From: an uncultured Bacilli bacterium
GTDB taxonomy: Bacteria; Bacillota_I; Bacilli_A; RF39; UBA660
Length of the DNA: 43,783 nucleotides
Direction: 5' to 3'
Assembly: GCA_944329355.1 (NCBI GenBank)
Contig: CALVID010000005.1
Coordinates: forward strand, 1-43,783
The notes beneath the pieces were generated by a model, which did not search any database, was not told where the DNA came from, and was given only the letters and a program-made list of their open reading frames with translations. Each line of letters starts with the position of its first letter. The stretch's first letter is position 1. The translations under genes and the position numbers were made by a program. Positions 18,595 through 41,195 of this stretch are shown here, one piece after another.

Positions 18595-18670
<76 letters not shown>

Positions 18671-18677
18671 AAAAAAA

Positions 18678-18754
18678 TGGTGGGCGCTATAGGACTCGAA
18701 CCTATGACCCCCTGCTTGTAAGGCAGGTGCTCTAACCAACTGAGCTAAGCGCCC
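18678..18754 (-). tRNA. tRNA-Val (UAC)
   Basis: Reverse complement GGGCGCT...CCTGC-CTTACAA-GCAGG...AGCGCCCACCA. Confidence 0.9.
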
Positions 18755-22703: not shown

Positions 22704-23957
22704 TCAGTAAATACTACGTGGGGTTTTAATTATATAAATATATAGTGCGATCAAAAATTCATTGCTGAATGGCAAGACATATTTAAAAGATATTTCATTT
22801 TTTTCTATTTGGTTATAAAAATATTTAACTATTTTTCGGCGATCAATAAGATTTTCTAATTTTTTATTTTTTAATCCATTAGCAATTTCTTCTAATTCTA
22901 CGGCTGGAGTATTAGATAAAGCTGTTAATAGTCCTTTATTGTAACTTTTAATATTATATATATTTGATTCATCAAAATTGAATGTTTTTCCGGCAATTTC
23001 AACTAAATTATTAAAATTATTATATAAAATTTTATTATTTAAAATCTCTTTAAATACATCTGAATGAAAAACTTTGTTTAATAATTTGCTGTCTGTATTT
23101 TTAAATATATTTGTTAGTTTTTCTTCGTATTTATTGATATATTTATTGTAGTTTTTTATTAAATTGTATTTTCGGAAAGTGAATTTGTTTCCTTCTAATT
23201 TTCCAAAGGTTTTCATAGTATCATTATAACCAAATTTTATAGCTCTTCTAGCCTGGTTTTTATCAAATACTAAAAATGATCCAATTTTATTTCTTGGAGA
23301 AATATAAGTAACTTCGACATCTTTATTTTTAATGGTTTTTTTAAATCCAATAGCCCTTAAGTCAACAGCAATTATTTCCGTAGCTCCTAAATCTATGGCC
23401 AAGTTTATTGGTAAGTTATCATAATATCCGCCATCTATATACATTTCATTATTAATAACATAAGGTTTAAAAGCTGGATAACAGGAAGCTGAAGATAACA
23501 CATAATCTTTTATATTCTTTGTAGTTAATTCTTTTTTTGTTATGAGTAAGGGCTTTCTTTTACTCAGGTTATAAGTAACAAGACCATAATCTATATTTGA
23601 GTGAAAAAATGTATAAGGTTTAAAGTAGTCGTCAAATATATTTTTCATTTTATAAATATCTAAGCCACCTTCATTGATAAATCCCTTAGCATATTGCAGA
23701 TATATTTTGGATAATTTTTCGTCTTCTATTGGGGGAAATTCGTTTTCATCATATATTGTTTTAAAGTTGACGTGGTCCCAAAAACTGAGTGCTCCTTTTA
23801 AATCTTTTTGGGCGATAAAAACTCCATTAATAGCCCCTATTGAAGTGCCGGTTACAATATTAATATCTTTTTTTAATTGCTTTAACGCTTTATATACGCC
23901 TATTTCATAAGCTCCTTTAGATCCCCCTCCTGAAAGGACTAATCCTAGCTTGCTCAT
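22704..23957 (-). CDS. patatin-like phospholipase
   Basis: Contains GLVLSGGGSKGAYEIGV (oxyanion hole), GTSIGA (GxSxG) and IDGGYYDN (the DGG motif). Confidence 0.85.
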   Translation of the reverse strand: MSKLGLVLSGGGSKGAYEIGVYKALKQLKKDINIVTGTSIGAINGVFIAQKDLKGALSFWDHVNFKTIYDENEFPPIEDEKLSKIYLQYAKGFINEGGLDIYKMKNIFDDYFKPYTFFHSNIDYGLVTYNLSKRKPLLITKKELTTKNIKDYVLSSASCYPAFKPYVINNEMYIDGGYYDNLPINLAIDLGATEIIAVDLRAIGFKKTIKNKDVEVTYISPRNKIGSFLVFDKNQARRAIKFGYNDTMKTFGKLEGNKFTFRKYNLIKNYNKYINKYEEKLTNIFKNTDSKLLNKVFHSDVFKEILNNKILYNNFNNLVEIAGKTFNFDESNIYNIKSYNKGLLTALSNTPAVELEEIANGLKNKKLENLIDRRKIVKYFYNQIEKNEISFKYVLPFSNEFLIALYIYIIKTPRSIY

Positions 23958-24065
23958 AATCACACTTCCTTTTGCTTATATTATACTACAAAGATCTAAA
24001 TTTTCATAATCTATAACTAGACTTTAAATAACAAATAAGGTAAAATGTTTCTTAGGTGAAGAAGT

Positions 24066-24722
24066 ATGATGGAATTTTACGATTTTATAACTTTATGTGC
24101 TTTATTTTTAGTGTATTCATTTTTAGGTTGGATTATTGAGGTTATTTTTACTTTTTTTGTCGAAGGGAAACTGGTTAATAGGGGGTTTTTGGTTGGTCCT
24201 TTAGTTCCTATTTGGGGAACTGGGGCAATTTTGATTACTTTAGTTTTAAAACCTGATGACAGTATATTTAGTTTAATTATTTCTTCAGCAGTTATCGGTA
24301 CTATTTTAGAATATATAGTAAATTATGTGATGGAAAAAATCTTTAAAGTTAGATGGTGGGATTATTCTCAATTCCCTTTTAATATTAATGGAAGAGTTTG
24401 TTTAATTACTTCATGTATGTTTGGTATTAGTGGTTTATTAGTAATAAAAGTGTTTAATCCTGTGTTTTTACATTTGTTCTTAATGATTAATAAATCGGTT
24501 TTTTATATATTAGTTTCTGTACTAGTGTTGCTAGTTTGTATAGATTTCGGAGTTTCATTTAATATTATTCAAAAGCTTAAATTTTCTTTTGATTCTGTTC
24601 ACAAGGATTATACCGAGGAAATTTCCAAACGAGTTAGGAATACATTAATGCATAAATCTATAGGTTTTAAAAGATTGTTGAAAGCTTTTCCGAATATAAA
24701 ATTTGGTATAAAGAAAAAATAG
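24066..24722 (+). CDS. polytopic membrane protein (DUF1113 / putative ABC-transporter type IV family)
   Basis: Contains YSFLGWIIEVIF and several TM segments. Confidence 0.6.
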   Translation: MMEFYDFITLCALFLVYSFLGWIIEVIFTFFVEGKLVNRGFLVGPLVPIWGTGAILITLVLKPDDSIFSLIISSAVIGTILEYIVNYVMEKIFKVRWWDYSQFPFNINGRVCLITSCMFGISGLLVIKVFNPVFLHLFLMINKSVFYILVSVLVLLVCIDFGVSFNIIQKLKFSFDSVHKDYTEEISKRVRNTLMHKSIGFKRLLKAFPNIKFGIKKK

Positions 24723-24730: not shown

Positions 24731-25942
24731 CTATTTTTTATATACACCAAATGATAAATCATTATTAAATTCTAGTTCAGTATTGGTAATTACCTTTCTT
24801 TCACCATATCTACTATAATAATAAAGGGTATTCCCGTTTAAGTAATAAATTGTATCATCTACATAAATTATACTGTTTAAATCTGTCGTTTGAAATAAAT
24901 ATGTTTTTAGTTTTTTATTTTGTATATTTATGCGATATACATTGTAAAAATTATTTTCTTTTTCATATACATAATAATTGTTATTTACTTTATCTACTTT
25001 ATCATAACCTTTTATATCATCTGTATAATATTTATTAAATTTTTTCTCGTTTAATGCTTCACTCAAACTAATATTTTCCCATTTTCCGTTATAAGTTTGA
25101 AGGTTGTTTTTATCATGGAATAATTCTACACTTTCGTTTTTTATGCTTATTTTATATTGCTTGGTAGCATCCTTATCAAATAAATATATATCACTACCTA
25201 GTGATCCAGCTATATATGAATCAAATGAAATGTCATCATAACTTCGTATGTCTATTTGATTTCCATTTATGATATTGATAACATGAAATATTTTAAAGGT
25301 ATAATTTTCTGTATAATCAGCTACAATATAATATTTGTCGGCAAAATAACTGATAGGTTTAGTGTATACATCATTATCAAAAATTTGAACATTGCTCTTT
25401 TTACCATTAAATAAATTTAGCCCTTTATAGGTTTCCATTGCTAGATAATGATTTTCCAAAAAATTATCTTCATATACTGTTTGTGTGTTTGAAAGTTTAA
25501 TTGGATCGGCTTTATCTTTATAATTGTTAGGGTCATAGTTGTATTTTTTTAATGTTTTTAAATAATCTTTTATTTTTTTATTATTCAATTTATAAGCATA
25601 GGTTATTGTATTATCTTTTAGGCACATTACATCTGTTAATAGTTTTCCGTTTTTAAATATTGGCAATATACATTGATAACCATCTATTTTTTTATAGTCT
25701 ATTTTACTGATTATTTTTTCAGCTTTATTATAATTTTGATTTATACTAAAATTCATTTTAAATTTTTCATGGGTTAATTCAAAATAATAGTTATTATTTT
25801 GTTTTGTTTTTAATTCTTCTTTTACTTTAAAATTACCTACATTATAAGTTATAGTATGTCCGTCATCAAATAAGAATAGAATAAATTTTAGAGCAAAGAA
25901 AACTACTGTAAATATTATTAATGTTTTAAATAAATACTTCAT
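24731..25942 (-). CDS. membrane-anchored hypothetical protein, beta-propeller-like (DUF5050-like, tentative)
   Basis: An N-terminal TM helix followed by Tyr/Asn-rich repeats (IYYLNGNTLYYY). Confidence 0.5.
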   Translation of the reverse strand: MKYLFKTLIIFTVVFFALKFILFLFDDGHTITYNVGNFKVKEELKTKQNNNYYFELTHEKFKMNFSINQNYNKAEKIISKIDYKKIDGYQCILPIFKNGKLLTDVMCLKDNTITYAYKLNNKKIKDYLKTLKKYNYDPNNYKDKADPIKLSNTQTVYEDNFLENHYLAMETYKGLNLFNGKKSNVQIFDNDVYTKPISYFADKYYIVADYTENYTFKIFHVINIINGNQIDIRSYDDISFDSYIAGSLGSDIYLFDKDATKQYKISIKNESVELFHDKNNLQTYNGKWENISLSEALNEKKFNKYYTDDIKGYDKVDKVNNNYYVYEKENNFYNVYRINIQNKKLKTYLFQTTDLNSIIYVDDTIYYLNGNTLYYYSRYGERKVITNTELEFNNDLSFGVYKK

Positions 25943-26911: not shown

Positions 26912-27652
26912 TTATTCTTTTAGGAAGCTTACGGTTTCTTCAATTACCTCTTTATTTGAATCATCATAGAAACAGTGGGTAGCTTTTTCAATCAATTTGA
27001 TATCAATGTTTTTTGATTTAAGTTCTAAAGACTGTTTATATGGGACAACTAGGTCTAAGGTACCATGAAATATTTTTACTTTTCCTTTAAAATTTTGAAT
27101 TACTTTTTTTGCATCATATTTTTCGGCATCATTAAAGGTATTCATGTTAAATTTAACATTAGTATTACCAAAGGTCGCATAGCCTTTTTCTCTTATTTGT
27201 TTTAAAGCTTCTTCACCTAAAAAGTCTTTACAAAAATGATTTTGGGGATGGATAACATTGTTTTTAGCATCTATTAATGGACTCCATAAAACTAATTTAT
27301 CTACATCTATATGTTCGGTAAGTAAGGTAGCTAATCCACCACCATAGGAAGTTCCAACGATACTGATTTTTTTATGGGGATATTTTTTTAACAAGGTTAA
27401 AGCTTCATTTATGGCAATTTCCATAGTTAAATCTTCAGTATGACCATCTGAGTTTCCATGACCTAAATAGTCAAATCTTAATGAATCTACGTTACTTTGT
27501 AATAATTTTTCAGATAAAGTATCAAAGTTCCCTTTTTCATGCATATTTGAACCAAATCCATGAAGTAATAGAGCTAAGTGAGAATTATTTTCATGGGTAT
27601 ATATATAAGATATATAATTACCATTTATTTTTATTTTACTTTTTACAATCAT
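26912..27652 (-). CDS. alpha/beta-fold hydrolase
   Basis: Contains LLLHGFGSN and the nucleophile elbow GTSYGG. Confidence 0.75.
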   Translation of the reverse strand: MIVKSKIKINGNYISYIYTHENNSHLALLLHGFGSNMHEKGNFDTLSEKLLQSNVDSLRFDYLGHGNSDGHTEDLTMEIAINEALTLLKKYPHKKISIVGTSYGGGLATLLTEHIDVDKLVLWSPLIDAKNNVIHPQNHFCKDFLGEEALKQIREKGYATFGNTNVKFNMNTFNDAEKYDAKKVIQNFKGKVKIFHGTLDLVVPYKQSLELKSKNIDIKLIEKATHCFYDDSNKEVIEETVSFLKE

Positions 27653-28782
27653 TTTAAATCTTCCTTTTTAATTGGGTTTAACAAGAAATGTATTATGGTT
27701 ACTATTAACATAAAGATACCTGATACGGTAAAAGTGGTTACAATATTTGAATTAAATAGGTTACTAATAAAGTTGATAATGTATGGTGATAAGAAAGCAC
27801 CTAACTGACCAGCACCATTAAATATAGCTATGGCTAAAGCACTTTTCGCAGCAATTACCATATTAGCTGAGAAGGTTATTCCAGCAGGGTTTCTGGTAGC
27901 AAAGGCAAAGCCTAATAAAGCAGAGCCTATAAAGATTAAAATTATTTGTTTAGTGGCGATTAAAAAGAATCCAATGGTAGCTATGGCACAAGCAAAGGTT
28001 AAAGTATTTGTTTTAAATATTTTAACTACTTTATTTAAGATAAAGCCAGCAAATAGACCTATTAGAGTATATATAGCTGTAACTAGGCCACTGATATCTG
28101 ATTTATAGCCTAGGTTTTCTAGTAATAAGGCAATACTGGTATTAAAGACGTTGATACTTATAAAGAATAGTATAGAAATTACGCCGAGAAGATAAATTCT
28201 TTTGGGTAACTTTTCTTTAGTTTGGCTTTCACTTTCGAGTTTATCATTTGGTAAAAAAGCTATATTTATTACAATGACTATAAGAGCTAGAAAGAAACAT
28301 AGATATGAATATGGCCAGTTTATTTTGGCTAGTAAGCCACTTAGGTATGAAAATAAGGTTCCACCAATACTGACAAATATTGATTGATAACCCATGACTT
28401 TCATTTTTTCTTCGCCATCAAAATAATAAGATATCATGGATGAACTGATAACATTTATTAGGCCAATTCCTAAACCGAGTAATATACTTGATACATATAA
28501 CTGCCATATATATCTATGGAATATATAGGTAAAGGCTCCACATAATGTAATTAATATTAAACCTATAATGCCAATATTTTTCATACTAATTTTTTTAGAT
28601 AAGGGGTTACATAAAAACATTGTTATTACGGAAAATAATGGTATTAAGGTAACTATTATTTGAATATTTTCTAATTTTTCATTTGGAAAACTATTATAGA
28701 TGTTTGCTACTATGGGGGTTAGGGCCATATATGATAATAAGAACATGCTTAAGGTCATAATGGCAATTAATTTTTTATTCAT
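27649..28782 (-). CDS. MFS-type transporter
   Basis: 377 aa with about 11-12 hydrophobic segments. It overlaps the downstream hydrolase gene by 4 nt. Confidence 0.7.
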   Translation of the reverse strand: MNKKLIAIMTLSMFLLSYMALTPIVANIYNSFPNEKLENIQIIVTLIPLFSVITMFLCNPLSKKISMKNIGIIGLILITLCGAFTYIFHRYIWQLYVSSILLGLGIGLINVISSSMISYYFDGEEKMKVMGYQSIFVSIGGTLFSYLSGLLAKINWPYSYLCFFLALIVIVINIAFLPNDKLESESQTKEKLPKRIYLLGVISILFFISINVFNTSIALLLENLGYKSDISGLVTAIYTLIGLFAGFILNKVVKIFKTNTLTFACAIATIGFFLIATKQIILIFIGSALLGFAFATRNPAGITFSANMVIAAKSALAIAIFNGAGQLGAFLSPYIINFISNLFNSNIVTTFTVSGIFMLIVTIIHFLLNPIKKEDLK

Positions 28783-28813
28783 ATTTTCAAAATAAAAAGC
28801 TTTAATAAGCCTT

Positions 28814-29257
28814 TTATTTTTCCCTTCTTGTATATTTTACTGATTTTTCATAACTTTTTAAAGCTACGTATGCTAATAAAGTAGAAACGATTACTCCTAA
28901 TGTAGCAAATATCAATGTGTTTTCCATTGTTTCTAAGGTTCTTAAATCAATATTTAATCCATTTATTAATACTCCAAAAGCGAATAAGAATCCTAAGATG
29001 GCAGCTACTAACACGTATGGTAAGTTTCTAATGAATGCTTTACCAATTGATAGTTTTCTATCTAATACTTTAGCTGTTCCTTTTAATACTATTACACCGT
29101 TTAATAAGGTTGGAATAGCGCAGCTCATGACACCACCTATTATATTAGGAATTTCGTTTTCGGGGTCAACTCCAACGACAGTAGTTAATACAAAGCCGAG
29201 AATAAATCCAACAACTACTCCAGGAAGTAATTGTTTTATAATATCTTTACCTTTCAT
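28814..29257 (-). CDS. small integral membrane protein
   Basis: 147 aa with 4 predicted TM segments. Confidence 0.55.
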   Translation of the reverse strand: MKGKDIIKQLLPGVVVGFILGFVLTTVVGVDPENEIPNIIGGVMSCAIPTLLNGVIVLKGTAKVLDRKLSIGKAFIRNLPYVLVAAILGFLFAFGVLINGLNIDLRTLETMENTLIFATLGVIVSTLLAYVALKSYEKSVKYTRREK

Positions 29258-29265
29258 AAGTCCTC

Positions 29266-30369
29266 CTAAAGTGATTTGAATACAGGTTTTCCTGTATAAA
29301 TCATCGGTTTTTCAAGGCCACTTAATACACGAATCGCGCCTGCAGATAGGGCTTCTAGTTCAAATTCTCCTGGCATAGATACGATTTTGGCCATGGTTTT
29401 ACAATATGATTTTATTTTATCTCTAACGTATTTATCGTTAGCTATTCCGCCAGTTAATATGATGGCTGAACAATTGCCTTTTAATGATGCATACATTGCA
29501 CCTATTTGTTTAATTATTTGATATATCATGGCATCTAAAATGATTTTAGCTTTTTGGTTGCCTTTATCAATCATTTTATGAACTTTTCTGATATCGTTGG
29601 TTCCAAGCCATGCGGTAAGACCTCCATTTTTACCGATAAAGCCTTTTATTTGTTCTAATGAATATTTATCATTCATACACATTTTTAAGACGGCTTTTGC
29701 TGGCAAGAAGCCACTTCTATTTGGAGTCATTGGGCCATCACCATTAACGATATCATTACAATCTATCATTTTACCTTTTCTATGGGCAGCTATGCTTATG
29801 CCACCACCTAAATGGCAAATGATAAGGTTTAAATCTTTATAGTTTTTGTCTATTTTTTTAGCATACCTAATAGCTATTTCTTTTTGGTTTAAAGCGTGAA
29901 TTCTAGATTCTCTATATACTCCAGGAATTCCAGTTATTCTAGCTTCAGTTATAAATTCGTCGACATCTGGTGGATTGACACAAAATGATGGTTTACCATA
30001 TTTATCACCTAAGTTTTTGGCTAAAACGATACCTAGAGCAGATGGATGTTTAACTATTTTCATCTCACTGGCACTTTTATACATTAACTGATTTATAATG
30101 TAAGTTCCACCTTGACATGGTTCTAGTGAGCCACCTCTACCTGAGAAGGCATCAATAGAATTTATGTCAATATTTTCTTTGTTTAAGGTGTCAATGACAG
30201 CTTTTAATCGGAATTCATACTGATCTTTAATGTCTGGATATGGTTTTAAATCTTCAGGGGTATGTTCGATTGATGTTTTGAAAATTACTTTTTCATTTTC
30301 AAACAAACCTATTTTAGTACTAGTACTTCCTGGGTTAATGGCTAAAACTATATATTTAGTTTTTGGCAT
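29266..30369 (-). CDS. buk: butyrate (short-chain acyl) kinase
   Basis: 367 aa. The N-terminus VLAINPGSTSTKIGLFE and its length fit the ASKHA acetate/butyrate kinase family. Confidence 0.85.
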   Translation of the reverse strand: MPKTKYIVLAINPGSTSTKIGLFENEKVIFKTSIEHTPEDLKPYPDIKDQYEFRLKAVIDTLNKENIDINSIDAFSGRGGSLEPCQGGTYIINQLMYKSASEMKIVKHPSALGIVLAKNLGDKYGKPSFCVNPPDVDEFITEARITGIPGVYRESRIHALNQKEIAIRYAKKIDKNYKDLNLIICHLGGGISIAAHRKGKMIDCNDIVNGDGPMTPNRSGFLPAKAVLKMCMNDKYSLEQIKGFIGKNGGLTAWLGTNDIRKVHKMIDKGNQKAKIILDAMIYQIIKQIGAMYASLKGNCSAIILTGGIANDKYVRDKIKSYCKTMAKIVSMPGEFELEALSAGAIRVLSGLEKPMIYTGKPVFKSL

Positions 30370-31378
30370 TTTCTTTATCTCCAGCTCTAACTACGGAAAT
30401 GGCTATATTTCCAACCATTTCAGATACTGGGGCACCTCTTGAACAATCACAGCAGATTTTTTTGAAACCTTGAAGTAATGGTCCGTAGGCATCGGCTCCA
30501 GCAAATCTTTGAATTAGTTTTACGCCAATATTTCCAGCGTTTAAATCTGGGAATATTAAAACGTTAGCCTCTCCAGCGACTTCGCTTTCTCTTTTTACTT
30601 TTTTAGCAGCAACTTCTGGTACTATAGCACTATCTAATTGAAATTCACCATCAATTTTTAAATCTGGTCTTTTTTCTTTGGCTATTTTAACAGCGTTTAC
30701 TACTTTATCTACAAGTTCACCACTTCCTGAACCACAGGTTGAATATGATAACATGGCACATTTTGGTTCAAAGCCAGTTACAGCTTTCATGGTATCACAG
30801 GCAGCTATAGCAATACTAGCTAGTTCGCTTGATGATGGATTTGGACATACGGCACAGTCGCCAACGGCTATTATATTTGATCCGTTTGCGAAGGTATAGT
30901 TTGGCATTTCAGCAATACCAATACTTGAGATAGTATCTAGGTTATCTTCTAGGCCGATTATAGTTTGAGCGGCATAGATAATTTCACCTGTACTACTATT
31001 GATACCAGCAAAGGTTACATCAACATCACCTACTGCTTCCATCATTAAAGCAAAGTTTAATGGGTCTTTCATTCTTCTAGTTAAAGATTTTTCTCCATAA
31101 ATGATATTAGGCAATTTTAGATATCTTTGTAAGACATCATTACTATATGTTTCATCTAAATTATCAACATATTTGAATTTAGAATCATCAATTTTATTTT
31201 CTTTGACTAAGGTTTTGACTTCTTCTATGTTTCCAACCACGATTGCTTCGGCATAGCCTTTATCTGATACTTCTTGCATAGCCGCAAGCATTTTTAGGTT
31301 ATTTGCTTCAGGAAAGGCTACCTTTTTAGGGTTAGCCTTCGCTTTAGCAAATATTTCATTCATTAATGTTTTTTCCAT
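30356..31378 (-). CDS. phosphate acetyl/butyryl-transferase (PTA_PTB family)
   Basis: 340 aa with AKANPKKVAFPEANNLKMLAA... It overlaps buk by 14 nt. Confidence 0.8.
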   Translation of the reverse strand: MEKTLMNEIFAKAKANPKKVAFPEANNLKMLAAMQEVSDKGYAEAIVVGNIEEVKTLVKENKIDDSKFKYVDNLDETYSNDVLQRYLKLPNIIYGEKSLTRRMKDPLNFALMMEAVGDVDVTFAGINSSTGEIIYAAQTIIGLEDNLDTISSIGIAEMPNYTFANGSNIIAVGDCAVCPNPSSSELASIAIAACDTMKAVTGFEPKCAMLSYSTCGSGSGELVDKVVNAVKIAKEKRPDLKIDGEFQLDSAIVPEVAAKKVKRESEVAGEANVLIFPDLNAGNIGVKLIQRFAGADAYGPLLQGFKKICCDCSRGAPVSEMVGNIAISVVRAGDKENAKN

Positions 31379-33174
31379 TATCTATAAATGTAATCTCCAT
31401 CTTCATAGCGTGGTGGAATTTCAGGTACTAATAGGTATGAGTCGTATTTTCCTCCTGTGTGGATAACGTGCTCACCCTTATTATCTGGGAACCATACTAA
31501 TGGTTCAAACCATTCATCTCTGATGTATCTTCCAGCTACTTGAACACGTAATTTTTGTCCTTTATGCCAGAATCTACTTAATGGCCAGATTTCAATATCG
31601 ACTGGAACGATTTCCCCTGGTTTTAGTTTTTCAGTTCTATCATGAGTATGAACTGGTTGATATTCGGTTGATTTTTCTTCATCTAGGTGTCTAGCAGATA
31701 CTCTAAGTTTACCCCAAGCACCTGGATGTCTTTCGGTACCAAATATTGTTACTGGAAGTTCTTCATCTTTAGTAGATAGTTTTTTGATGGTAATGAATAA
31801 ATCCATGTCATCATGACCTCTAGCTTCAACCCACATACGTAATTTCATATAACCTGTTAGTTCAGTATCTTTCCTAAAGGTATAATCGAATGTGGTTAGG
31901 CCAGTAGCTCCATCGTAACTTACTTCGGCTTCATTTTTAACTGGAGCGTCACCCAATTTACCAGTTGCGGCATTTAAGTATAGTTTTTTATACTGGGTTC
32001 TAGCAAGTGGAAACTCGTCTTCTGGTCTACCTGTTTGATATGGATATTCAAAGGCATCCATAACTTCCATTCTGATTTTTGGAGTTAATTCCCAGCCGTT
32101 ATAAATATCTTTTAGATAACGGTCAAAGAATAATTTTAAATCTAATAACCATTTTGGATTATAAGTGTCTGGCCATTCAAATACTTGGTGACATCTCATC
32201 CATTTTTTTCTAGATTTAATTTTATTGAATCCTTCCCAAGCTCCTCTTAGGTGGAAGTGATTCCAGTTACAAGTAGCATAGGTTGGTACAGTTATTTTTT
32301 CAAATTGTGGAATTTTATCTTGCCAGTATGGGCTTGTAACATATGGTTCTTTTTTAGCCATGGCTAAGGTATTATCAATGAATCCTTTACCTTGAGCGGC
32401 AACGACTATTGATCCACCAAATAGTCCTGGAATTCCACCCTCCATTATACTTTCTCTATATTGGTCGCCTGTTGCTTCCCATGGAGCAATACAAGTTAGG
32501 TGTGGTGGATTTTCAGCGGCGATTCTCCATTGACTCATGGCTACACCAGAGTTTCCGAATAATCCTACTTTACCTGTACACCATTTTTGCTGTGCGGCCC
32601 ATTCAACAAAGTCATAACCATCTCTACCTTCTTGGGTACCAAATTGAATTTGGTCGCCCTCTGAGTTTCCAATTCCTCTTGGGTCAACGTTAGCGACAGC
32701 GTATCCTTGGTAACACCAGAATAATGGGTCTGATGATTCAAATTTACATACTTTAGATACGGCACCTGTTGGTACGCCCATTGGTCTAAAGATTTGAACT
32801 GGTTGATGCCATGGTTGTTTTCCAAAGAATGACCAACTTATAATAAGTGGAACTGGTTCTTCCATGGCTGTTTTTGGCATATAAATATCAGCATAGATAG
32901 TTACACCATCACGCATTTTAACCGGTTGGTCTTGCAAGCATAATATTTTTTCTTCTTCATCAACAAAATATTCAGTGGTGTTTACTGGTACTTCTATGCA
33001 GTAGTTAGCCATTTCTTCACGAGGTAATTTCATATATTCCTCTTTTGGAATTGGCTGAGTTAGTTTTGAGAAGATTACGTCGCAAGATGTTCCATTTGGA
33101 TAAGTTACTTTGACAATTTTTTCTTCTCTTTTTGGCAATTCTTTTGGTAATGCCATATTGTTTTCTTCGTTCAT
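31378..33174 (-). CDS. CocE/NonD-family (S15 X-Pro dipeptidyl-peptidase-like) hydrolase
   Basis: 598 aa with YADIYMPK...PVPLII, VDPRGIGNSEG and FGNSGVAMSQW (nucleophile region), plus a large C-terminal beta domain. Confidence 0.75.
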   Translation of the reverse strand: MNEENNMALPKELPKREEKIVKVTYPNGTSCDVIFSKLTQPIPKEEYMKLPREEMANYCIEVPVNTTEYFVDEEEKILCLQDQPVKMRDGVTIYADIYMPKTAMEEPVPLIISWSFFGKQPWHQPVQIFRPMGVPTGAVSKVCKFESSDPLFWCYQGYAVANVDPRGIGNSEGDQIQFGTQEGRDGYDFVEWAAQQKWCTGKVGLFGNSGVAMSQWRIAAENPPHLTCIAPWEATGDQYRESIMEGGIPGLFGGSIVVAAQGKGFIDNTLAMAKKEPYVTSPYWQDKIPQFEKITVPTYATCNWNHFHLRGAWEGFNKIKSRKKWMRCHQVFEWPDTYNPKWLLDLKLFFDRYLKDIYNGWELTPKIRMEVMDAFEYPYQTGRPEDEFPLARTQYKKLYLNAATGKLGDAPVKNEAEVSYDGATGLTTFDYTFRKDTELTGYMKLRMWVEARGHDDMDLFITIKKLSTKDEELPVTIFGTERHPGAWGKLRVSARHLDEEKSTEYQPVHTHDRTEKLKPGEIVPVDIEIWPLSRFWHKGQKLRVQVAGRYIRDEWFEPLVWFPDNKGEHVIHTGGKYDSYLLVPEIPPRYEDGDYIYR

Positions 33175-33189
33175 ATAACCCCTTCTTTC

Positions 33190-33429
33190 TTATTCTACCA
33201 TTTTAGCGATTGCATCAGCAGCTTGGCCAATTGTTTCTGCGTGCATTAATTCTGTGTATTTGATATAGCAGTCGTATTCTTCTTCAAATTCAGAAATAAT
33301 ACCAGCAAGTTCAATGCTTTTAAGGTTTAAGTCTGTTTTGATGTTAGTATTTTCTGAAAGTGTTGATGGGTCGACACGCATTACTTTGGCAGTTTTTTCG
33401 ATAAGTTTTTTTAATATTTCATCACGCAT
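33190..33429 (-). CDS. acyl carrier protein-like
   Basis: 79 aa. TDLNLKSIELAGIISEFEEEYD aligns to the ACP pattern LGxDSLxxVELVxxxEEEF, with Ser in a KS context rather than DS. Confidence 0.7.
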   Translation of the reverse strand: MRDEILKKLIEKTAKVMRVDPSTLSENTNIKTDLNLKSIELAGIISEFEEEYDCYIKYTELMHAETIGQAADAIAKMVE

Positions 33430-33479
33430 AGTCTTTCTCCTTTCTTTAGAAGTGTGATATACTTAAGTAGGTGTTGTTT

Positions 33480-33824
33480 ATGATTAAAGGAATCGGATGT
33501 GATATTTTATCTATTTCTAGATTTAAAAATGTTCTTGAGACGACTCCTGCTTTACTTAAACGCTGCTTCAGTGAACGAGAAATAGATGAGTATCATAAAA
33601 GGAATGATATTGCCTATTTGGCTTCACGGTTTGCAGCTAAGGAAGCTATTGTTAAGTCTTTTACTAAGTATGATCACGATTTAAATTCTATTGAGATACT
33701 AAATGATGATTGTGGGAAACCGTATGTGGTTATCCAAAGTGAGATTAAGCCTGAGATATTTGTTTCAATTTCTTATGAAACAGAATATGTGATGGCTTAC
33801 GCGGTATTATCTAGTATCTTATAA
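33480..33824 (+). CDS. acpS: holo-[acyl-carrier-protein] synthase (4'-phosphopantetheinyl transferase)
   Basis: Contains MIKGIGCDILSISRF...FAAKEAIVKS...GKPY. It is divergent from the ACP gene. Confidence 0.85.
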   Translation: MIKGIGCDILSISRFKNVLETTPALLKRCFSEREIDEYHKRNDIAYLASRFAAKEAIVKSFTKYDHDLNSIEILNDDCGKPYVVIQSEIKPEIFVSISYETEYVMAYAVLSSIL

Positions 33825-34428
33825 TAATTATAACTTATTATGGGATTATCTTCAATCTATTTATGCATAAGAGTGCAAAAAAAATAAGCTACCTGTCAAA
33901 TAGCCTATTTTTTTGTGGATAAATTTAACTATATTTATACTGACAGATATAATTATAGTTATTATCAAGATTCCACATGTACGTACATTACTTAATAGCT
34001 TGATAACGATAGAAAAGTGAACAAAATAGTCATATTATAACCATAACTATTTGTAATTTGCTTCGTAAATTACTAAAAATTTACTGAAAAATAATTTTTA
34101 ATAAGTATACACAGATTAGAAATTATTAGTGCTGTTTTGTGACTATCCTATTAAGTACTTTCAATATATCATGGTTTTTGGAATAAAGCAAGTGATTTTG
34201 AATAATTTTATTTTTTATATGTAAAGTTTACTTGTTGAGATTAAATTTTTTGTTCCTTTGAACATACATATTGATAATTTTGTTAGTTGAAAGGAACATA
34301 GAAACACAATATAATTTAATTATAAAAAGAATGTTTACATATTTTTGTGCAAGCATTCTCTTATTTTTAAGGTGTTTTGCAGTATTTCAATTTTTTTATT
34401 TTCTGTTTTTTCTAAAATACCTTTATTA

Positions 34429-34655
34429 CCTTATTTTATAAGGCTTTATGCGTTCTTTCCGCAACATTTTTTATACTTCTTACCAGAGCCGCATGTTCAA
34501 GAAATCCAAGTATTTATGGTATTATTAGCATTTATGTAATTATTGGTATTTCAAGGCTTTATGGCACTGGTAACAAAAATATTTGTGGTATTTATAGTAC
34601 TAATAGTACTATGTTTATTTTATAATTTGAAAACAAATCGGAAATATTGTGTGCA
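34429..34655. repeat. att-like direct repeat, copy A
   Basis: Aligns with 36236-36453. It contains three TGGTATT motifs (34517, 34544, 34586), the palindrome AGTACTAATAGTACT (34596-34610), and a minus-strand 16-codon SEC-C-motif remnant (34446-34496). Confidence 0.8.
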
Positions 34656-34817
34656 AAACAAATTATATACAATGATTCTGTTTTGCACGCAAAAAAGATA
34701 TTACTGCAAACTCATGGTGCTATTGTATTAGGAAAGTTAGATTTATATTTTTAAATAATTACTTAGTTTTCCCTTTTGTTAAATTATTTTTTATAATATA
34801 TATATCAAATGTAAAAT

Positions 34818-35843
34818 TTACATTTTTTCTATATCTTTAGTCTCTTTTAACAATTTATCAAAATCAGAAACATAATTTTTATCTTGAATAATTTTGTATT
34901 TATCATACTCACCTTCAGCTTTTTTTACTGCCATTTTATGGGATATTTTACCTTTACCATCTAATACTTCATAATGAAATAATGTCAAAGCATTTTCTAC
35001 TTCTTTTTTCCAATCATTCATATACATTGGAATATTTCTTTCTGCATTATTTTCAGCAATATCAAGAAATAAGTTTACTAAATTATTTAAATTCTTAATT
35101 TCTTTTTCATCCAAGTAATTTTTAGCAATAGTAACATCAGATTTTAGTATCTTACCATTAGGAGAATTTTCCCATGTTGTAAGTCCCATGTTATCTTTTT
35201 TAGCATCCACCCTATTATAAATAATTTCGGCTGCTGTTTGGCCTGTGATAGCAAAATGAAACTTATTTTGAACCGTTTTATAAAATGTTATAGCTTCATC
35301 ACTATTCTTATCATAATCAATAGAACATTCAGCAAATATATCGGTAATCTTTTGATAAAACATCCTTTCACTTGTACGAATTAATTTAATTCTTTCAAGT
35401 AATCTTTGAAAATATTCTTGATCAGTTCTCCTTGCTTTCATAAATCTTTCATCATTTAAAGCAAAACCTTGAACCATATAATCTTTAATAATTTTATTAG
35501 CCCATGTTCTAAACTTAATTGCTTTTTTAGAATTAACTCTAAAACCAATAGAGATAATCATATCAAGATTATAATATGGATAAACTCTCTTAACCTCACG
35601 GTTACCTTCTTTTTGAACTTGTGCAATTTTTGCACAAGTTAAATTTTTTTCTAATTCTTTATCATTATAGATATTTTTAATATGACGAACAATACCACTT
35701 CTATCAATATTGAAAAGAGTTGCTAATGCTTCAGTATTTAACCAAACATCTTCATTTTTTAAAAGAACTTCAATTTTTATATTTCCTTCTTTATCGTTAT
35801 AAAACAAAATATTTTTTTCATTTCCTACTAATTTATCATTCAT
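34818..35843 (-). CDS. RhuM-family virulence/Fic-associated protein
   Basis: 341 aa with ILFYNDKEGNIKIEVLLKNEDVWLNTEALATLFNIDRSGIVRHIKNIY and YYNLDMIISIGFRVNSKKAIKFRTWA. Confidence 0.8.
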   Translation of the reverse strand: MNDKLVGNEKNILFYNDKEGNIKIEVLLKNEDVWLNTEALATLFNIDRSGIVRHIKNIYNDKELEKNLTCAKIAQVQKEGNREVKRVYPYYNLDMIISIGFRVNSKKAIKFRTWANKIIKDYMVQGFALNDERFMKARRTDQEYFQRLLERIKLIRTSERMFYQKITDIFAECSIDYDKNSDEAITFYKTVQNKFHFAITGQTAAEIIYNRVDAKKDNMGLTTWENSPNGKILKSDVTIAKNYLDEKEIKNLNNLVNLFLDIAENNAERNIPMYMNDWKKEVENALTLFHYEVLDGKGKISHKMAVKKAEGEYDKYKIIQDKNYVSDFDKLLKETKDIEKM

Positions 35844-36235: not shown

Positions 36236-36453
36236 CCTTATTTTATAAGCTATTTGCCACAACAATTTTTATATTTTTTTCCACTCCCACATGTTCAAGC
36301 AATCCAAGTATTTATAGTATTATCAGTATTTACGTAATTATTGGTATTTCAAGGCTTTGTGGCACTGGTAATAAAAATATTTGCGGTATTTATAGTACTA
36401 TGAGTACTATGTTTATTTTACTATTTGAAAACATTTTGGAAACATTGTGTGCA
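36236..36453. repeat. att-like direct repeat, copy B
   Basis: See copy A. The minus-strand remnant here reads TCGSGKKYKNCCGK*. Confidence 0.8.
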
Positions 36454-36703
36454 TCTGTTTACGTAATCTATTATAGCACATTTTTATTTAAAATCACTTC
36501 ATATTTAATTTTCTTATAATTGTTAGTCAAAAAAAGCATAACATAAATATTTTACTACGTTTTGAACATTTATATTTGTATCACATAAAAATATACTTGG
36601 TATACCATGTATATTAGCAATCTTCTTTTTATTAAAAAGTCGTAAAAAAAAAAGAAGATGTAATATTTGGACTTGTCAATAAAAAGTAGACAGTAAAAAA
36701 GAG

Positions 36704-37561
36704 TTATTTAAACCCTAGTTGAGTTCTATACTCAATTGGGGTTTTATAATTTAATGCATAACTTGGTCGATAATTATTGTTATCGTATATAATATCATCA
36801 ATAAATTCTTGAACTGTGTTATAATTATTAATGTCAAAGTCAATATACATTTCCTTTTTAATCCAGCCGTTTTTGGATTCGATTACTGGATTATCTGTAG
36901 GTGTGCCAGCTCTAGACATTGATCTGGTTATATTATAGGAATCAAATATATTGTTAAATGACGCTGAGGAATATATAATGCCTTGATCTGTGTGAACAAT
37001 GGTTTCTAGGTCTTTATATCCTCTTTTTATTTTGTTGTTTAACATATTCTTTACTGCTTTTTCATGATTCAACACTCCATTTCCGTACATTGTTTCTCTA
37101 ACATCCGAGCCAACTATTTCATTATTAAATACATCCAGATAAAATGTCCAATCATATTTTTTTCTTTTAAACCAAAATGAAGTAGTATCTGAAACTATTT
37201 TTTCAAATGGCCTTTTTGTTTTCCAATTATACCCAATTATATTTTCATATTTAACAGATTCTTCACCCGGTTTCTTATATTTATAATGTTTTGCTTTTGA
37301 TTTTATATTTAATATCTTACATACTTTATGTACTAAGTTATCTGATACAATCCATCCAGTTTCATCAACTATTATTTTTCTTATTCTATGATATCCATAA
37401 CTTGGTTTTCTTTTATGAATATTTTTTATTAATTCTCCTAAGTCTCTACGGTTAATCTCATATCTATTTAAAATGTTTCTTGTCTTAAGCCATTTATAAT
37501 AACCACTTCTTGAAATATTCATAATTTTACATAAAGATTTTATATTATACTCCTTACTCAA
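36704..37561 (-). CDS. IS3 transposase OrfB (rve/DDE integrase core)
   Basis: 285 aa from the first in-frame start (TTG, 37559-37561). The frame is open upstream to the slippery site at 37639-37645, so it is probably made as an OrfAB fusion by a -1 frameshift. Confidence 0.85.
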   Translation of the reverse strand: MSKEYNIKSLCKIMNISRSGYYKWLKTRNILNRYEINRRDLGELIKNIHKRKPSYGYHRIRKIIVDETGWIVSDNLVHKVCKILNIKSKAKHYKYKKPGEESVKYENIIGYNWKTKRPFEKIVSDTTSFWFKRKKYDWTFYLDVFNNEIVGSDVRETMYGNGVLNHEKAVKNMLNNKIKRGYKDLETIVHTDQGIIYSSASFNNIFDSYNITRSMSRAGTPTDNPVIESKNGWIKKEMYIDFDINNYNTVQEFIDDIIYDNNNYRPSYALNYKTPIEYRTQLGFK

Positions 37562-37590
37562 TATTTCGACTATTTCAAATTCCTTTTGTT

Positions 37591-37950: not shown

Positions 37951-38046
37951 CTTATCATCTCCTTAATCTAATTTTACCAAAAGAAAAAGTAAACACATCT
38001 TTTTTTGTGTCTACTTTTATCTTATAAGTTCAATGTAATATTCTTC

Positions 38047-40398: not shown

Positions 40399-40417
40399 TT
40401 TATCACCCCATTACTAT

Positions 40418-41185: not shown

Positions 41186-41195
41186 ACACTTCTCC

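Follow-up and report, generated by a model that had tools for sequence, protein, structure and literature searches.

What is a stand-alone acyl carrier protein (ACP) doing beside genes for a phosphopantetheinyl transferase (AcpS), a CocE/NonD-type enzyme, a phosphate acyltransferase and a butyrate kinase? This question is raised by a locus in the window, the whole analyzed stretch of 43,783 nt from an uncultured Bacilli bacterium (contig CALVID010000005.1). An earlier note had read the locus as an energy-conserving cleavage route. All eight genes that it had called are present as open reading frames of the matching families:

26912-27652, (-) strand: alpha/beta hydrolase, 246 aa (Hydrolase_4 / Abhydrolase_1)
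27649-28782, (-) strand: MFS transporter, 377 aa (PF07690, 128 bits)
28814-29257, (-) strand: predicted membrane protein outside known families, 147 aa
29266-30369, (-) strand: butyrate kinase (Buk-like acyl kinase), 367 aa (NF002834, 445 bits)
30356-31378, (-) strand: PTA_PTB phosphate acyltransferase (Pta-like), 340 aa (PF01515, 299 bits)
31378-33174, (-) strand: CocE/NonD-family enzyme, 598 aa (TIGR00976, 188 bits)
33190-33429, (-) strand: ACP, 79 aa (PF00550, 27.7 bits)
33471-33824, (+) strand: AcpS, 117 aa (PF01648, 56 bits)

The overlaps that had been described follow from these coordinates: 1 nt between the CocE-type gene and pta, shared by the stop codon of the former and the start codon of the latter, 14 nt between pta and buk, and 4 nt between the MFS and hydrolase genes. 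The AcpS gene, starting with GTG at 33471 or ATG at 33480, is divergent from the ACP gene at a distance of about 41 nt.

The genes for AcpS, ACP, the CocE/NonD-type enzyme, the Pta-like and the Buk-like enzyme form a unit (the module) that was found at 131 loci, hosted by uncultured Bacilli, Clostridia, Desulfobacteraceae, Syntrophorhabdales, Dehalococcoidia and one gammaproteobacterium. Carriers include Oscillospiraceae and a Thalassolituus MAG, and named species with the unit are Lactonifactor longoviformis and Clostridium boliviensis. The unit recurs across phyla, far outside the window genome, and the pta/buk pair, for which unrelated neighbors had been considered, travels with the ACP, AcpS and CocE-type genes. 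Well-flanked loci, in which the CocE-type gene has 5 kb or more on both sides, number 36 outside the Bacilli and 10 of the Bacilli type. Among the former, the CocE-type gene is accompanied by ACP at 30, pta at 29, buk at 26 and, within 10 kb, AcpS at 28 loci; all four partners are present at 24/36 and three or more at 29/36. The Bacilli-type loci contain ACP, pta and buk in 10/10 and AcpS within 10 kb in 9/10 cases. The gene order is variable while the membership is constant. Compact operons in cultured Clostridia have the order CocE-ACP-pta-buk-MFS-OYE and are devoid of ring-pathway genes. In a neighbor-joining tree the window clade is nested within the family, with the sisters L066/L067 (module plus OYE) and L058 (FLR, FAD_binding_2); genomes of the window lineage have a size of about 1.3 Mb. 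Seven well-flanked loci combine CocE-type and flavonoid-type genes with no more than two of the four partners, so some members of the CocE-type family may merely hydrolyze their substrate. No description of the five-gene unit was found in the literature accessible to search.

The ACP lies above the PF00550 cut-off (27.7 vs. 20.8 bits) and under every NCBIfam AcpP cut-off (e.g., TIGR00517, 26.7 vs. 70.45). The serine of its LNLKSIE motif, Ser38, is invariant in 62/62 homologous ACPs, so that the predicted site for phosphopantetheinylation, which the earlier note had regarded as decisive, is present throughout; Lys37 is kept in 61/62, resulting in a "KS" where "DS" is usual. AcpS scores 73 bits against TIGR00556 (cut-off 45) and 59.7 bits against TIGR00516 acpS (cut-off 59.8), and it is presumed to be the 4'-phosphopantetheinyl transferase that turns the apo-ACP of the module into holo-ACP. 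It is fast-evolving: identities drop to 33-40% between loci whose CocE-type proteins are 85-86% identical. For the stand-alone ACP, a role as acceptor of an acyl group on its phosphopantetheine thiol is proposed.

The CocE/NonD-type enzyme matches TIGR00976 with 188 bits (cut-off 66) and contains PF02129 plus PF08530. Its family comprises at least 2,804 cluster representatives at E<=1e-100 against a family member, and the relatives in other phyla are 52-68% identical. It was modeled with AlphaFold (pLDDT 82, pTM 0.83), and the closest solved structure is SACOL2612 from S. aureus (3IB3/3III; E 2e-87, Foldseek TM 0.72-0.78), with 31% identity in the structural alignment and no annotation beyond the deposited "CocE/NonD family hydrolase"; cocaine esterase (CocE) is reached with E 1e-15 only and TM ~0.6. 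Fold, domain order and nucleophilic-serine elbow are common to all three. The nucleophile, Ser209, is present in 114/114 members, but the canonical Asp position (W-x-D in CocE) is His306 in 109/114, and the canonical His loop (GPWSH) is replaced by an invariant R-x-H...E-W..D motif, with H308, R327, H329, E333 and D336 invariant in the family. The enzyme is no classical Ser-Asp-His hydrolase, which revises the original assignment as serine hydrolase/acyltransferase. It is proposed that the substrate is cleaved via an acyl-Ser209 intermediate and that the acyl group is passed to holo-ACP.

The phosphate acyltransferase is nearer to Pta than to Ptb and stays below the equivalog cut-offs (TIGR00651, 268 vs. 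311). The equivalents of Ser309 and Arg310 (Methanosarcina thermophila Pta numbering), the catalytic Ser-Arg pair, are kept in 88/88 module Ptas. The equivalent of Arg133 is an Arg in 5/5 aligned Ptas from the PDB but never in the module enzymes, which have M/Y/L/F/I instead. At the equivalent of Arg87, Arg is found in 0/77 sequences of the listed residue classes (L/I/K/T/Q/V), the other 11 of 88 not being itemized. Both positions are those which we take to hold the arginines binding the nucleotide part of CoA, a role that has reportedly been established for Arg87 as well as for Arg133. The missing Arg at both would fit a substrate without the nucleotide part of CoA, and acyl-S-ACP + Pi -> acyl-phosphate + holo-ACP is proposed as the reaction. 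The Buk-like enzyme belongs to the butyrate kinases (TIGR02707, 421 bits vs. cut-off 289); its proposed reaction is acyl-phosphate + ADP -> acid + ATP.

The company of the module points to a substrate class. At 31/36 well-flanked non-Bacilli loci flavonoid-type genes are found (FLR-like, OYE+Pyr_redox_2, FAD_binding_2 or SnoaL_4), and the companions outside the Bacilli include flavone-reductase homologs, Fcr/EnoR-type reductases, C-glycoside deglycosidases and phloroglucinol-pathway genes. The FLR-like neighbor in L059 matches (E 5e-40) PDB entry 7D38, the crystallized flavone reductase of Flavonifractor plautii (PMC7862272). C-glycoside deglycosidase genes (CGDB, AP_endonuc_2, GFO) are present in L057, L059, L060, L141 and L142, and O-demethylase-type URO-D and B12-binding genes in 4-6 loci. 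The families SDR, Cyclase, 3HCDH and BKACE, by comparison with the anaerobic phloroglucinol pathway (PMC10470551), adjoin the CocE-type gene in L059, there together with a thiolase, and in L101; subsets are found in L071 and L076. The arrangement (FLR)-OYE-(SnoaL_4)-[AcpS-pta-buk-ACP-CocE] is shared by L101, L122, L098 and L131, and in L101 the phloroglucinol genes directly follow the module. The module of the non-Bacilli loci apparently occupies the slot that the phloretin hydrolase gene (phy) has in the flr-fcr-phy unit of C. butyricum (PMC11868195). A corresponding gap is known from certain MAGs of flavonoid degraders, in which FLR, Fcr and CHI are encoded but Phy is missing (PMC11170127).

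We consider it about an even chance that the unit replaces Phy by a non-homologous, energy-conserving route, leading from an acylphloroglucinol via holo-ACP and acyl-phosphate to ATP. AcpS would add the phosphopantetheine arm to Ser38 of the dedicated ACP. Ser209 of the CocE/NonD-type enzyme would attack an energy-rich acyl compound with release of the leaving group, and the acyl group would be handed to the ACP thiol instead of water. The acyl-S-ACP would then be phosphorolyzed by the Pta-like enzyme, and the phosphate of the resulting acyl-phosphate moved to ADP by the butyrate-kinase-type enzyme. The substrate would be a C-acylated phloroglucinol, i.e., a dihydrochalcone such as phloretin or a related ring-opened flavanonol product, originating from dietary flavonoids by the action of flavone reductase and Fcr/EnoR-type reductases. 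Phloroglucinol would be released, and the arylpropionyl (or related) group would finally become the free acid, with a gain of one ATP. The central idea of the earlier note, transfer of the acyl group from the CocE/NonD enzyme to a thiol carrier and on to acyl-phosphate and ATP, fits the conservation, the ACP serine and the Pta substitutions; we infer all chemical steps, the direction of flux and the substrate from genomic context and sequence. The acids on which butyrate kinases and Pta enzymes are known to act are short-chain, which counts against an arylpropionyl substrate. At the 10 well-flanked Bacilli-type loci no flavonoid-type gene lies within 8-10 kb of the module. Near the operon, the window lineage has no more than the core, the membrane protein, the MFS and the hydrolase, so a ready-made substrate would need to be imported from other gut microbes. 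The substrate assignment in this lineage, the weakest point of the reading, would follow from the phylogenetic bracket at the identity to other phyla given above. If the reading is correct, a small gut bacterium gains ATP from a breakdown product of plant polyphenols, by substrate-level phosphorylation through a protein-bound thioester and not a CoA thioester.

Several known systems are close to the module. Phy (DAPG-hydrolase family; flr-fcr-phy of Clostridium butyricum and C. ljungdahlii) is, like the module, located near FLR homologs and Fcr/EnoR-type reductases, upstream of phloroglucinol degradation. The same bond is proposed to be cleaved and both would end in phloroglucinol and an aryl acid. 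The enzymes show no homology, Phy having the DAPG-hydrolase fold and the CocE-type enzyme the CocE/NonD alpha/beta fold with a serine nucleophile. With water as acceptor, Phy wastes the bond energy, whereas the ACP, AcpS, phosphate acyltransferase and kinase of the module imply capture of the acyl group and its conversion to ATP. The first step resembles the reaction of PhlACB (PpATase), a CoA-independent Friedel-Crafts acyltransferase from Pseudomonas protegens, in passing the acyl group of a C-acylphloroglucinol to a thiol. It was seen in crystals that Cys88 of PhlC is acetylated by monoacetylphloroglucinol with release of phloroglucinol (PMC6392133), making the proposed first step chemically feasible; for the reverse direction, thioesters are described as acyl donors (PMC6686624). 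Unlike the module, PhlACB has a thiolase-like fold, uses its own cysteine, acts in biosynthesis and has neither a carrier protein nor phosphate/ATP coupling.

Pta-Ack and Ptb-Buk share the families of the module (PF01515, PF00871/butyrate kinase), the sequence thioester, acyl-phosphate, ATP and the Ser-Arg pair of Pta. They differ in their carrier, which is CoA and in the module apparently ACP, with the two presumed CoA-binding Pta positions lacking Arg. Moreover, the module pairs a Pta-type transferase with a Buk-type kinase, and its thioester would be formed by group-transfer cleavage and not by oxidation or a CoA transferase. A precedent for the Pta-like step is PlsX, the acyl-ACP:phosphate acyltransferase of phospholipid synthesis, which interconverts acyl-ACP and acyl-phosphate. 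PlsX serves lipid synthesis with long-chain acyl groups, while for the module enzyme ATP formation is proposed; its Pfam family, which we take to be FA_synthesis and thus another one than that of the Pta-like enzyme, is absent from the profile matches of the window genes. Finally, the triacetate acetoacetate-lyase (BKACE family) of the anaerobic phloroglucinol pathway performs a C-C cleavage of a 1,3-dicarbonyl that yields a thioester and no free acid (PMC10470551). Like the module as proposed, it conserves energy in polyphenol breakdown, and it is encoded beside it in L059 and L101; it belongs to another enzyme family, has acetyl-CoA as co-substrate and lacks a carrier protein.

The same mechanism could also act on another 1,3-dicarbonyl, which we regard as unlikely: an open-chain beta-diketo or beta-keto acid would undergo retro-Claisen cleavage by the CocE-type enzyme, and a short acyl group (acetyl or C4) would be loaded onto ACP for ATP formation. 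Examples of such an acid are triacetate (3,5-dioxohexanoate), derived from the phloroglucinol ring, and another 3-oxo acid formed by a neighboring 3-hydroxyacyl dehydrogenase. Short acyl groups suit the Pta-like and butyrate-kinase-type enzymes better than aryl acids, and phloroglucinol-pathway genes are adjacent in several loci. In Syntrophorhabdales, a 3-hydroxyacyl dehydrogenase (3HCDH), and neither FLR nor OYE, is the closest companion. In L054 and L055 its gene immediately precedes AcpS-ACP-CocE-pta-buk, and the related loci L080 and L084 carry 3HCDH, CocE, pta and buk in unchanged order; this suggests a different 1,3-dicarbonyl substrate at least in this branch. 3HCDH is found in 11/86 non-Bacilli loci. 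However, FLR-like (32/88) and OYE-type genes (27/88) are much commoner companions. The adjacent phloroglucinol pathway has its own C-C cleaving enzyme (BKACE) and thiolase, and the compact Clostridia operons hold an OYE-type reductase but no ring-pathway genes.

The ester or amide originally suggested as imported substrate, which would be cleaved by the CocE/NonD enzyme and feed the same route to ATP, is likewise improbable; phenolic or hydroxycinnamoyl esters, depsides and amino-acid esters would be examples. It would agree with the characterized CocE/NonD relatives, which are all ester/amide hydrolases or acyl-serine acyl transferases (cocaine esterase, alpha-amino-acid ester hydrolases, PepX), with the transporters and second alpha/beta hydrolase of the window operon, with the absence of flavonoid-type genes near the module in the Bacilli lineage, and with the polyphenol esters of the herbivore-gut habitats that yielded related MAGs. 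Yet the hydrolase triad is altered, and a thioester is richer in energy than an ordinary alkyl ester or amide, which would make the transfer to a thiol unfavorable except from activated esters. The FLR, Fcr/EnoR-type reductase, C-glycoside deglycosidase and phloroglucinol companions belong to a flavone/flavanone route free of ester intermediates, and the context in other lineages favors a flavonoid-derived C-acyl compound (e.g., acylphloroglucinol, dihydrochalcone). In the window lineage itself, an ester may still be the substrate.

Operation in reverse is judged quite improbable. Here, the Buk-like and Pta-like enzymes would consume ATP to convert a free acid via acyl-phosphate to acyl-ACP, from which the CocE-type enzyme would acylate an acceptor for detoxification, polyphenol or lipid modification or acylphloroglucinol synthesis. 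Pta/Ack-type reactions are reversible, carrier proteins are typical of biosynthesis, alpha-amino-acid ester hydrolases of the superfamily transfer acyl groups to nucleophiles, and PhlACB makes C-acylation of phloroglucinols from thioesters feasible. However, the neighbors are catabolic (reductases, deglycosidases, demethylases, phloroglucinol degradation, uptake systems), no synthase, acceptor-forming or export function recurs among the loci, and an ATP-consuming modification is hard to square with a unit kept in genomes as small as those of the window lineage. That there is no functional unit, and a fermentation pta-buk, a lipid ACP/AcpS and a CocE/NonD peptidase or esterase lie together by chance, is very improbable: each gene alone has an ordinary annotation and small-genome Bacilli taking up fatty acids keep ACP and AcpS, but this is already contradicted by the co-occurrence of the five genes across phyla despite changing order and flanks, and the sub-threshold ACP with its family-specific "KS" motif, the Pta without Arg at both presumed CoA-binding positions and the overlapping start and stop codons also speak against it.

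The three genes downstream of buk differ from this core. The 147-aa membrane protein, without match in Pfam or NCBIfam and possibly a substrate or product transporter, follows buk directly at 35-40 loci, all of the Bacilli type; its earlier inclusion in the unit thus holds for the Bacilli type only. The MFS and the alpha/beta hydrolase (26912-27652; PF12146, 50 bits; PF00561, 47.5 bits; no NCBIfam cut-off passed) are each confined to the same nine closest loci and are lineage-specific additions outside the conserved core into which they had been drawn. With the MFS that the Clostridia operons encode between buk and the OYE-type reductase, the window MFS shares only ~25% identity.

The locus had further been described as a sharp compositional island from 26.9 to 33.8 kb beside att-like repeats. 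Its GC content is indeed raised, to 0.34-0.385 between 29,000 and 33,500 vs. ~0.22-0.29 elsewhere in the window (1-kb windows), a smaller rise than the hand counts had indicated. The genes from buk to AcpS have a GC of 0.33-0.38, while hydrolase (0.28) and MFS (0.29) are at background (~25%), so the shifted stretch covers ~29.2-33.8 kb. The shift is mostly in codon positions 1 and 2 (GC1 0.41-0.50, GC2 0.29-0.39), with GC3 rising only to 0.22-0.26 vs. a background of 0.09-0.23. Such a pattern is compatible with strong constraint on protein composition or with an old transfer that has since ameliorated, and not with a fresh island. A search for direct or inverted repeats flanking 26912-33824 gave none. 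What lies next to 33824 is a 200-nt direct repeat, with copies at 34456-34655 and 36254-36453 (87% identical) around a RhuM-family gene that has no counterpart in L001. An IS3-type element with 44-nt inverted repeats is located further on at 36667-38033; its transposase has no counterpart in any comparison locus retrieved. The left flank is syntenic in the close relatives L001, L003, L036 and L039, and the mobile island is rejected on codon-position GC, repeat search and this synteny. The GC content of the window peaks at 17.4-18.8 kb (0.45), where 13 tRNA genes form an array.

The five genes encoding AcpS, an acyl carrier protein (ACP), a CocE/NonD-type enzyme, a Pta-like transferase and a Buk-like kinase form a conserved unit, which in the window is embedded in the following genes:

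26912-27652, minus strand: alpha/beta hydrolase (PF12146, 50 bits)
27649-28782, minus strand: MFS transporter (PF07690, 128 bits)
28814-29257, minus strand: 147-aa membrane protein, no family match
29266-30369, minus strand: butyrate-kinase-type kinase (TIGR02707, 421 bits, cut-off 289)
30356-31378, minus strand: PTA_PTB-family transferase (PF01515, 299 bits; under the Pta and Ptb equivalog cut-offs)
31378-33174, minus strand: CocE/NonD-family protein (TIGR00976, 188 bits)
33190-33429, minus strand: ACP, 79 aa (PF00550, 27.7 bits)
33471-33824, plus strand: AcpS, divergent (PF01648, 56 bits)

All eight ORFs described in the earlier note were recovered at these coordinates and match the families it had named, and the overlaps it had reported (1 nt, 14 nt and 4 nt) agree with the gene boundaries. 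The window has a GC content of about 25%, and its CocE-type protein is 99% identical to the one encoded on OZ007025.1, an uncultured Bacilli MAG whose chromosome measures 1.34 Mb. When the operon was scanned for promoters and terminators, the sites were no more numerous than in shuffled sequence, and an Rfam scan found no riboswitch or leader near the operon. Upstream of the operon a patatin-like phospholipase (22704-23963) and a CmpB-type putative ABC-transporter membrane protein (24066-24722) are encoded, and no Pfam family matches the nearby ORFs 24731-25942 and 19497-20390.

The distribution of the unit was analyzed at 52 loci from a scan of species-representative genomes, 80 loci added by a profile-based scan of metagenome contigs and ten from look-ups of single homologues. 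The census used HMM searches of six-frame translations, after ORF calling and clustering, and 131 loci hold a member of the CocE-type family. The partner genes are present at most of the well-flanked loci.

Partner genes no more than 10 kb from the CocE-type gene; the loci counted extend 5 kb or more to either side of that gene
Partner: Bacilli-type loci; other lineages
ACP: 10/10; 30/36
pta: 10/10; 29/36
buk: 10/10; 26/36
AcpS: 9/10; 28/36
All four partners: 9/10; 24/36
At least three partners: 10/10; 29/36

Seven well-flanked loci hold the CocE-type gene without most of the partners. The gene order depends on the lineage (AcpS-pta-buk-ACP-CocE, CocE-ACP-pta-buk or ACP-CocE-AcpS-pta-buk), which argues for a functional unit rather than inherited synteny. 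Carriers include Desulfobacteraceae, Syntrophorhabdales, Dehalococcoidia, Oscillospiraceae, Parasporobacterium and a Thalassolituus MAG, and among named species Lactonifactor longoviformis, Clostridium boliviensis, Lacrimispora defluvii and Anoxybacterium hadale. Only Bacilli-type loci encode the small membrane protein, and only the nine closest relatives the MFS transporter and the alpha/beta hydrolase. In the marine Thalassolituus MAG (L038, Gammaproteobacteria) ACP-CocE-AcpS-pta are found at 55% identity with no buk-type gene within the locus. The contig may be a contaminant, or the unit may be present there in a truncated version. Two CocE-type paralogues, in tandem or a few genes apart, are encoded at L056 (Dehalococcoidia), L106, L107, L110, L113 and L126; one set of paralogues, from the latter five loci, constitutes a separate deep branch in the tree, suggesting subfunctionalisation for different substrates.

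The Pta-like protein scores 299 bits against PF01515 (cut-off 24) and stays below the equivalog models for Pta (TIGR00651, 268 vs. a cut-off of 311.2; NF007233, 286 vs. 310) and far below those for Ptb (66-69 bits vs. cut-offs of about 400). It was aligned to the Pta of M. thermophila (1QZT) and to four other solved Ptas. The equivalents of the catalytic Ser309 and Arg310 (M. thermophila numbering) are kept in 88/88 Ptas of the unit, and the acidic position 316 is Glu in 83 of the 88 and Asp in three. The two arginines Arg87 and Arg133, which reportedly bind the phosphates of CoA, are replaced. The position of Arg133, an arginine in all five solved Ptas aligned, is hydrophobic or aromatic (M/Y/L/F/I) in all 88, the window having Tyr135; at the Arg87 position, which is Leu89 in the window, L/I/K/T/Q/V stand in those 77 of the 88 sequences that were itemised. 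The loss of both arginines is expected if the substrate is a phosphopantetheine arm borne by a protein. The Buk-like protein reaches equivalog level, with 421 bits against TIGR02707 (cut-off 289) and 445 bits against NF002834 (cut-off 222).

The ACP matches PF00550 with 27.7 bits (cut-off 20.8). Its Ser38, the predicted phosphopantetheine site, is invariant in 62/62 homologues, so that a candidate for the modified serine on which the earlier note had made its reading depend is present. The surrounding motif is K-S-[LVI] and not the canonical D-S-L, with Lys preceding Ser38 in 61 of the 62, and every NCBIfam ACP/AcpP model scores under its cut-off (best 38.4 vs. 66), leaving the protein outside the AcpP equivalogs. 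Both features point to a probably distinct, dedicated carrier. AcpS is recognized by PF01648 (56 bits, cut-off 25) and TIGR00556 (73 bits, cut-off 45) and lies just under TIGR00516 (59.7 vs. 59.8).

The CocE-type enzyme shows the two-domain architecture of its family (TIGR00976, 187.8 bits, cut-off 66.3; PF02129, 113.5 bits; PF08530, 118.1 bits). Its structural model (pLDDT 82) adopts the family fold, and the top Foldseek matches are all CocE/NonD-family structures, the closest being SACOL2612, which is deposited only as family hydrolase and for which a full-text literature search returned no published function. With at least 2,800 cluster representatives at E<=1e-100 the enzyme belongs to a very large and strongly conserved CocE/NonD branch, labelled in databases only as 'predicted acyl esterase' or 'CocE/NonD family hydrolase'. 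All 114 of the 114 members and all three outgroups have Ser209 (G-N-S-G/C/A-V), which the model places between strand 199-208 and helix 209-220, i.e., in the nucleophile elbow after strand beta5. The Asp and His sites were read from the sequence alignment to the CocE-like outgroup loci L051 and L052, as PDB alignments to cocaine esterase leave this region uncovered. Judged from this alignment, the position of the outgroup Asp (W-x-D after beta7) is taken by His306 in 109 of 114 members; the family members lack the GPW[SA]H loop and instead have an invariant R327-x-H329...E333-W..D336. The classical Ser-Asp-His triad is thus not seen in the alignment, and with its altered Asp and His positions the enzyme is a member of the fold family but apparently no textbook Ser-Asp-His hydrolase. 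The altered triad would be compatible with acyl-transfer chemistry.

In 31/36 well-flanked loci outside the Bacilli type the unit adjoins FMN_red, OYE+Pyr_redox_2, FAD_binding_2 or SnoaL_4 genes. The FMN_red proteins have about 320 aa, the FAD_binding_2 proteins are ene-reductase-like, and the OYE+Pyr_redox_2 reductases have about 655 aa and an architecture that is presumably also that of the enoate reductase EnoR. This architecture fits the published description of Fcr as FAD-dependent oxidoreductase with an alpha/beta-barrel domain (PMC11868195). The crystal structure of the Flavonifractor plautii flavone reductase (FLR; 7D38) is matched by the FMN_red neighbour at L059 with E 5e-40. Genes for C-glycoside deglycosidases (CGDB, AP_endonuc_2, GFO) are located at L057, L059, L060, L141 and L142, and URO-D-like and B12-binding O-demethylase components at four to six loci. 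The gene set of the anaerobic phloroglucinol pathway comprises the families SDR, Cyclase, 3HCDH and BKACE (PMC10470551); this set abuts the CocE-type gene at L059 (with a thiolase) and L101, and subsets are present at L071 and L076. Two of the loci, L057 and L142, have flavonoid-type clusters flanked by large AraC-type regulators (about 800 aa) fused to a Glyco_hydro_39 domain, an unusual architecture.

In Clostridium butyricum the genes are arranged as flr-fcr-phy (PMC11868195), phy encoding phloretin hydrolase (Phy). The order at L101 is FLR-OYE-[AcpS-pta-buk-ACP-CocE]-BKACE-Cyclase-SDR-3HCDH, that at L122, L098 and L131 is (FLR)-OYE-SnoaL_4 followed by the unit, and cultured Clostridia have a compact operon CocE-ACP-pta-buk-(Fe-ADH)-MFS-(2-hydroxyacid dehydrogenase)-OYE. 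Compared with the order in C. butyricum, the unit therefore occupies the place of phloretin hydrolase. None of the eight operon proteins matches Phy/PhlG (DAPG_hydrolase) in Pfam at E<=0.01, and the claim made here is that the CocE-type enzyme works in place of Phy without homology to it, not that it is itself a Phy. Human-gut Clostridia (L094, L095, L097, L105, L141) encode an Fe-alcohol dehydrogenase and a D-2-hydroxyacid dehydrogenase between the unit and the OYE-type reductase. The latter dehydrogenase would fit the reported aryl-lactate products of quercetin and taxifolin and also an arylpyruvate, which was hypothesised as intermediate (PMC11170127).

In the window's own lineage no flavonoid-type genes were found within 8-10 kb of the unit (0/10 well-flanked loci). 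For this lineage the substrate would be given by a phylogenetic bracket at 52-68% identity: in the neighbour-joining tree the window clade is nested inside the CocE-type family, and its sisters are L066 and L067, which hold the unit and OYE, and L058, which holds FLR and FAD_binding_2. The MFS transporters of the window and of the Clostridia operon fall into one single-linkage cluster but share only about 25% identity, and the link between them was taken as weak evidence.

From the above we infer a route in which AcpS would convert the dedicated ACP to holo-ACP and the CocE-type enzyme would load the acyl group of a C-acylphloroglucinol onto Ser209, freeing phloroglucinol, and then hand it to the ACP thiol. 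The substrate would be phloretin or another dihydrochalcone, or else the equivalent product from a flavanonol, and the window lineage would import it, perhaps via the small membrane protein or the MFS transporter. The Pta-like enzyme would yield the acyl-phosphate, and the Buk-type kinase ATP and the free aryl acid. The first step appears feasible, since Cys88 of PhlC is acetylated by monoacetylphloroglucinol under release of phloroglucinol (PMC6392133); in the reverse reaction thioesters act as donors (PMC6686624). The PhlACB system is thus a precedent for the transfer of a C-acyl group to a thiol, and the BKACE lyase of the phloroglucinol pathway is a parallel case of thioester-conserving C-C cleavage. 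PlsX sets the precedent for the conversion of acyl-ACP to acyl-phosphate, although it belongs to another family and acts in lipid synthesis, and the unit would work like Pta-Ack and Ptb-Buk but on a protein carrier. Substrate-level phosphorylation via an acyl-phosphate is rated as known, and the proposed carrier and thioester-forming enzyme as new. No description of this gene combination was found in full-text searches of the openly accessible literature.

The observation in the earlier note is confirmed in part, and its interpretation is supported in part: the idea that an acyl group passes via a carrier to ATP fits the data, whereas the framing as an island and the substrate class are not supported. 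We give even chances to the general mechanism with a flavonoid-derived acylphloroglucinol as substrate. The full scenario is offered more tentatively, and we consider it rather less probable than not: a rewired enzyme of the CocE/NonD fold would cleave the aryl-ketone C-C bond of dihydrochalcones onto the carrier, and a Pta switched from CoA to ACP would act with Buk to give one ATP per flavonoid C-ring for anaerobes of gut, sediment and peat, with the gut Bacilli of about 1.3 Mb being partly cross-feeders on dihydrochalcones released by others. For Syntrophorhabdales, in whose loci a 3-hydroxyacyl dehydrogenase accompanies the unit, the substrate could plausibly be an open-chain 1,3-dicarbonyl compound. 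An ester substrate, which the earlier note had proposed, is possible in the form of an activated ester. The reverse, ATP-consuming direction is less likely, as the catabolic genomic company speaks against it.

If the replacement of Phy by an energy-conserving unit is true, it would matter in several respects. In current descriptions, gut and soil anaerobes finish the breakdown of flavonoids with a hydrolytic C-C cleavage by Phy that wastes energy, and an ATP-yielding alternative would change the understanding of growth on polyphenols. We know of no earlier catabolic substrate-level phosphorylation via an acyl carrier protein instead of CoA, nor of a PTA_PTB-family enzyme acting on acyl-ACP, and the unit would be the first known case of both. 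It would provide a function for the very large, currently unannotated CocE/NonD branch, and it could account for flavonoid degraders without Phy; some MAGs hold FLR, Fcr and CHI but no Phy (PMC11170127). Retention of the unit by genomes of about 1.3 Mb from the guts of herbivores and humans suggests that it is important to how these uncultured Bacilli gain energy, and gives a hint of what they could be fed in culture. The finding deserves experimental follow-up.

The sharp GC island postulated in the earlier note is a real but modest compositional shift. In 1-kb windows the GC content is 0.34-0.385 at 29.0-33.5 kb vs. 0.22-0.29 elsewhere; per gene, the shift is limited to buk through AcpS (0.33-0.38), with the hydrolase and the MFS gene at background (0.28-0.29). 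It sits mainly at codon positions 1 and 2, the GC3 of the shifted genes being 0.22-0.26 vs. 0.09-0.23 in other genes. Compared with the near-identical genome L001 the CocE-type protein is 99% identical and the flanking genes 81-92%, and between Bacilli lineages it keeps 85-86% identity while AcpS drops to 33-40%. As the CocE-type protein is far better conserved than its neighbours, protein constraint suffices to explain a good part of the shift. Nothing points to a recent mobile island: a search for an integrase, for flanking repeats and for a break in synteny found no repeats flanking 26912-33824. The supposed att-like repeats bracket a neighbouring RhuM-family gene, the nearest transposase is part of a separate IS3-type element about 3 kb off, and close relatives have the unit as well as its left flank, which is syntenic in them. 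A candidate second island, the GC peak at 17-19 kb, is a tRNA array.

This array (17460-18754, minus strand) contains 13 tRNA genes in 1.3 kb and gives the window its GC maximum (0.45); one further tRNA gene is located at the left end (156-229, plus strand). The RhuM-family gene (34818-35843; PF13310, 344 bits) is set apart from AcpS by a stretch of about 1 kb that seems to be non-coding (33825-34817), and it is bracketed by a 200-nt direct repeat of 87% identity (34456-34655 and 36254-36453). It has no match in L001 and therefore looks like a small variable insertion. The IS3-type element (36667-38033) has 44-nt imperfect inverted repeats (36667-36710 and 37990-38033) and encodes an rve-domain transposase (36704-37561), without match in any locus fetched for comparison, and a small upstream ORF (37591-37950). 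The window further holds a run of five tightly packed genes (38297-43363, minus strand), including those for a 508-aa radical-SAM protein and a 537-aa protein with a C-terminal PfkB-kinase as its sole match.
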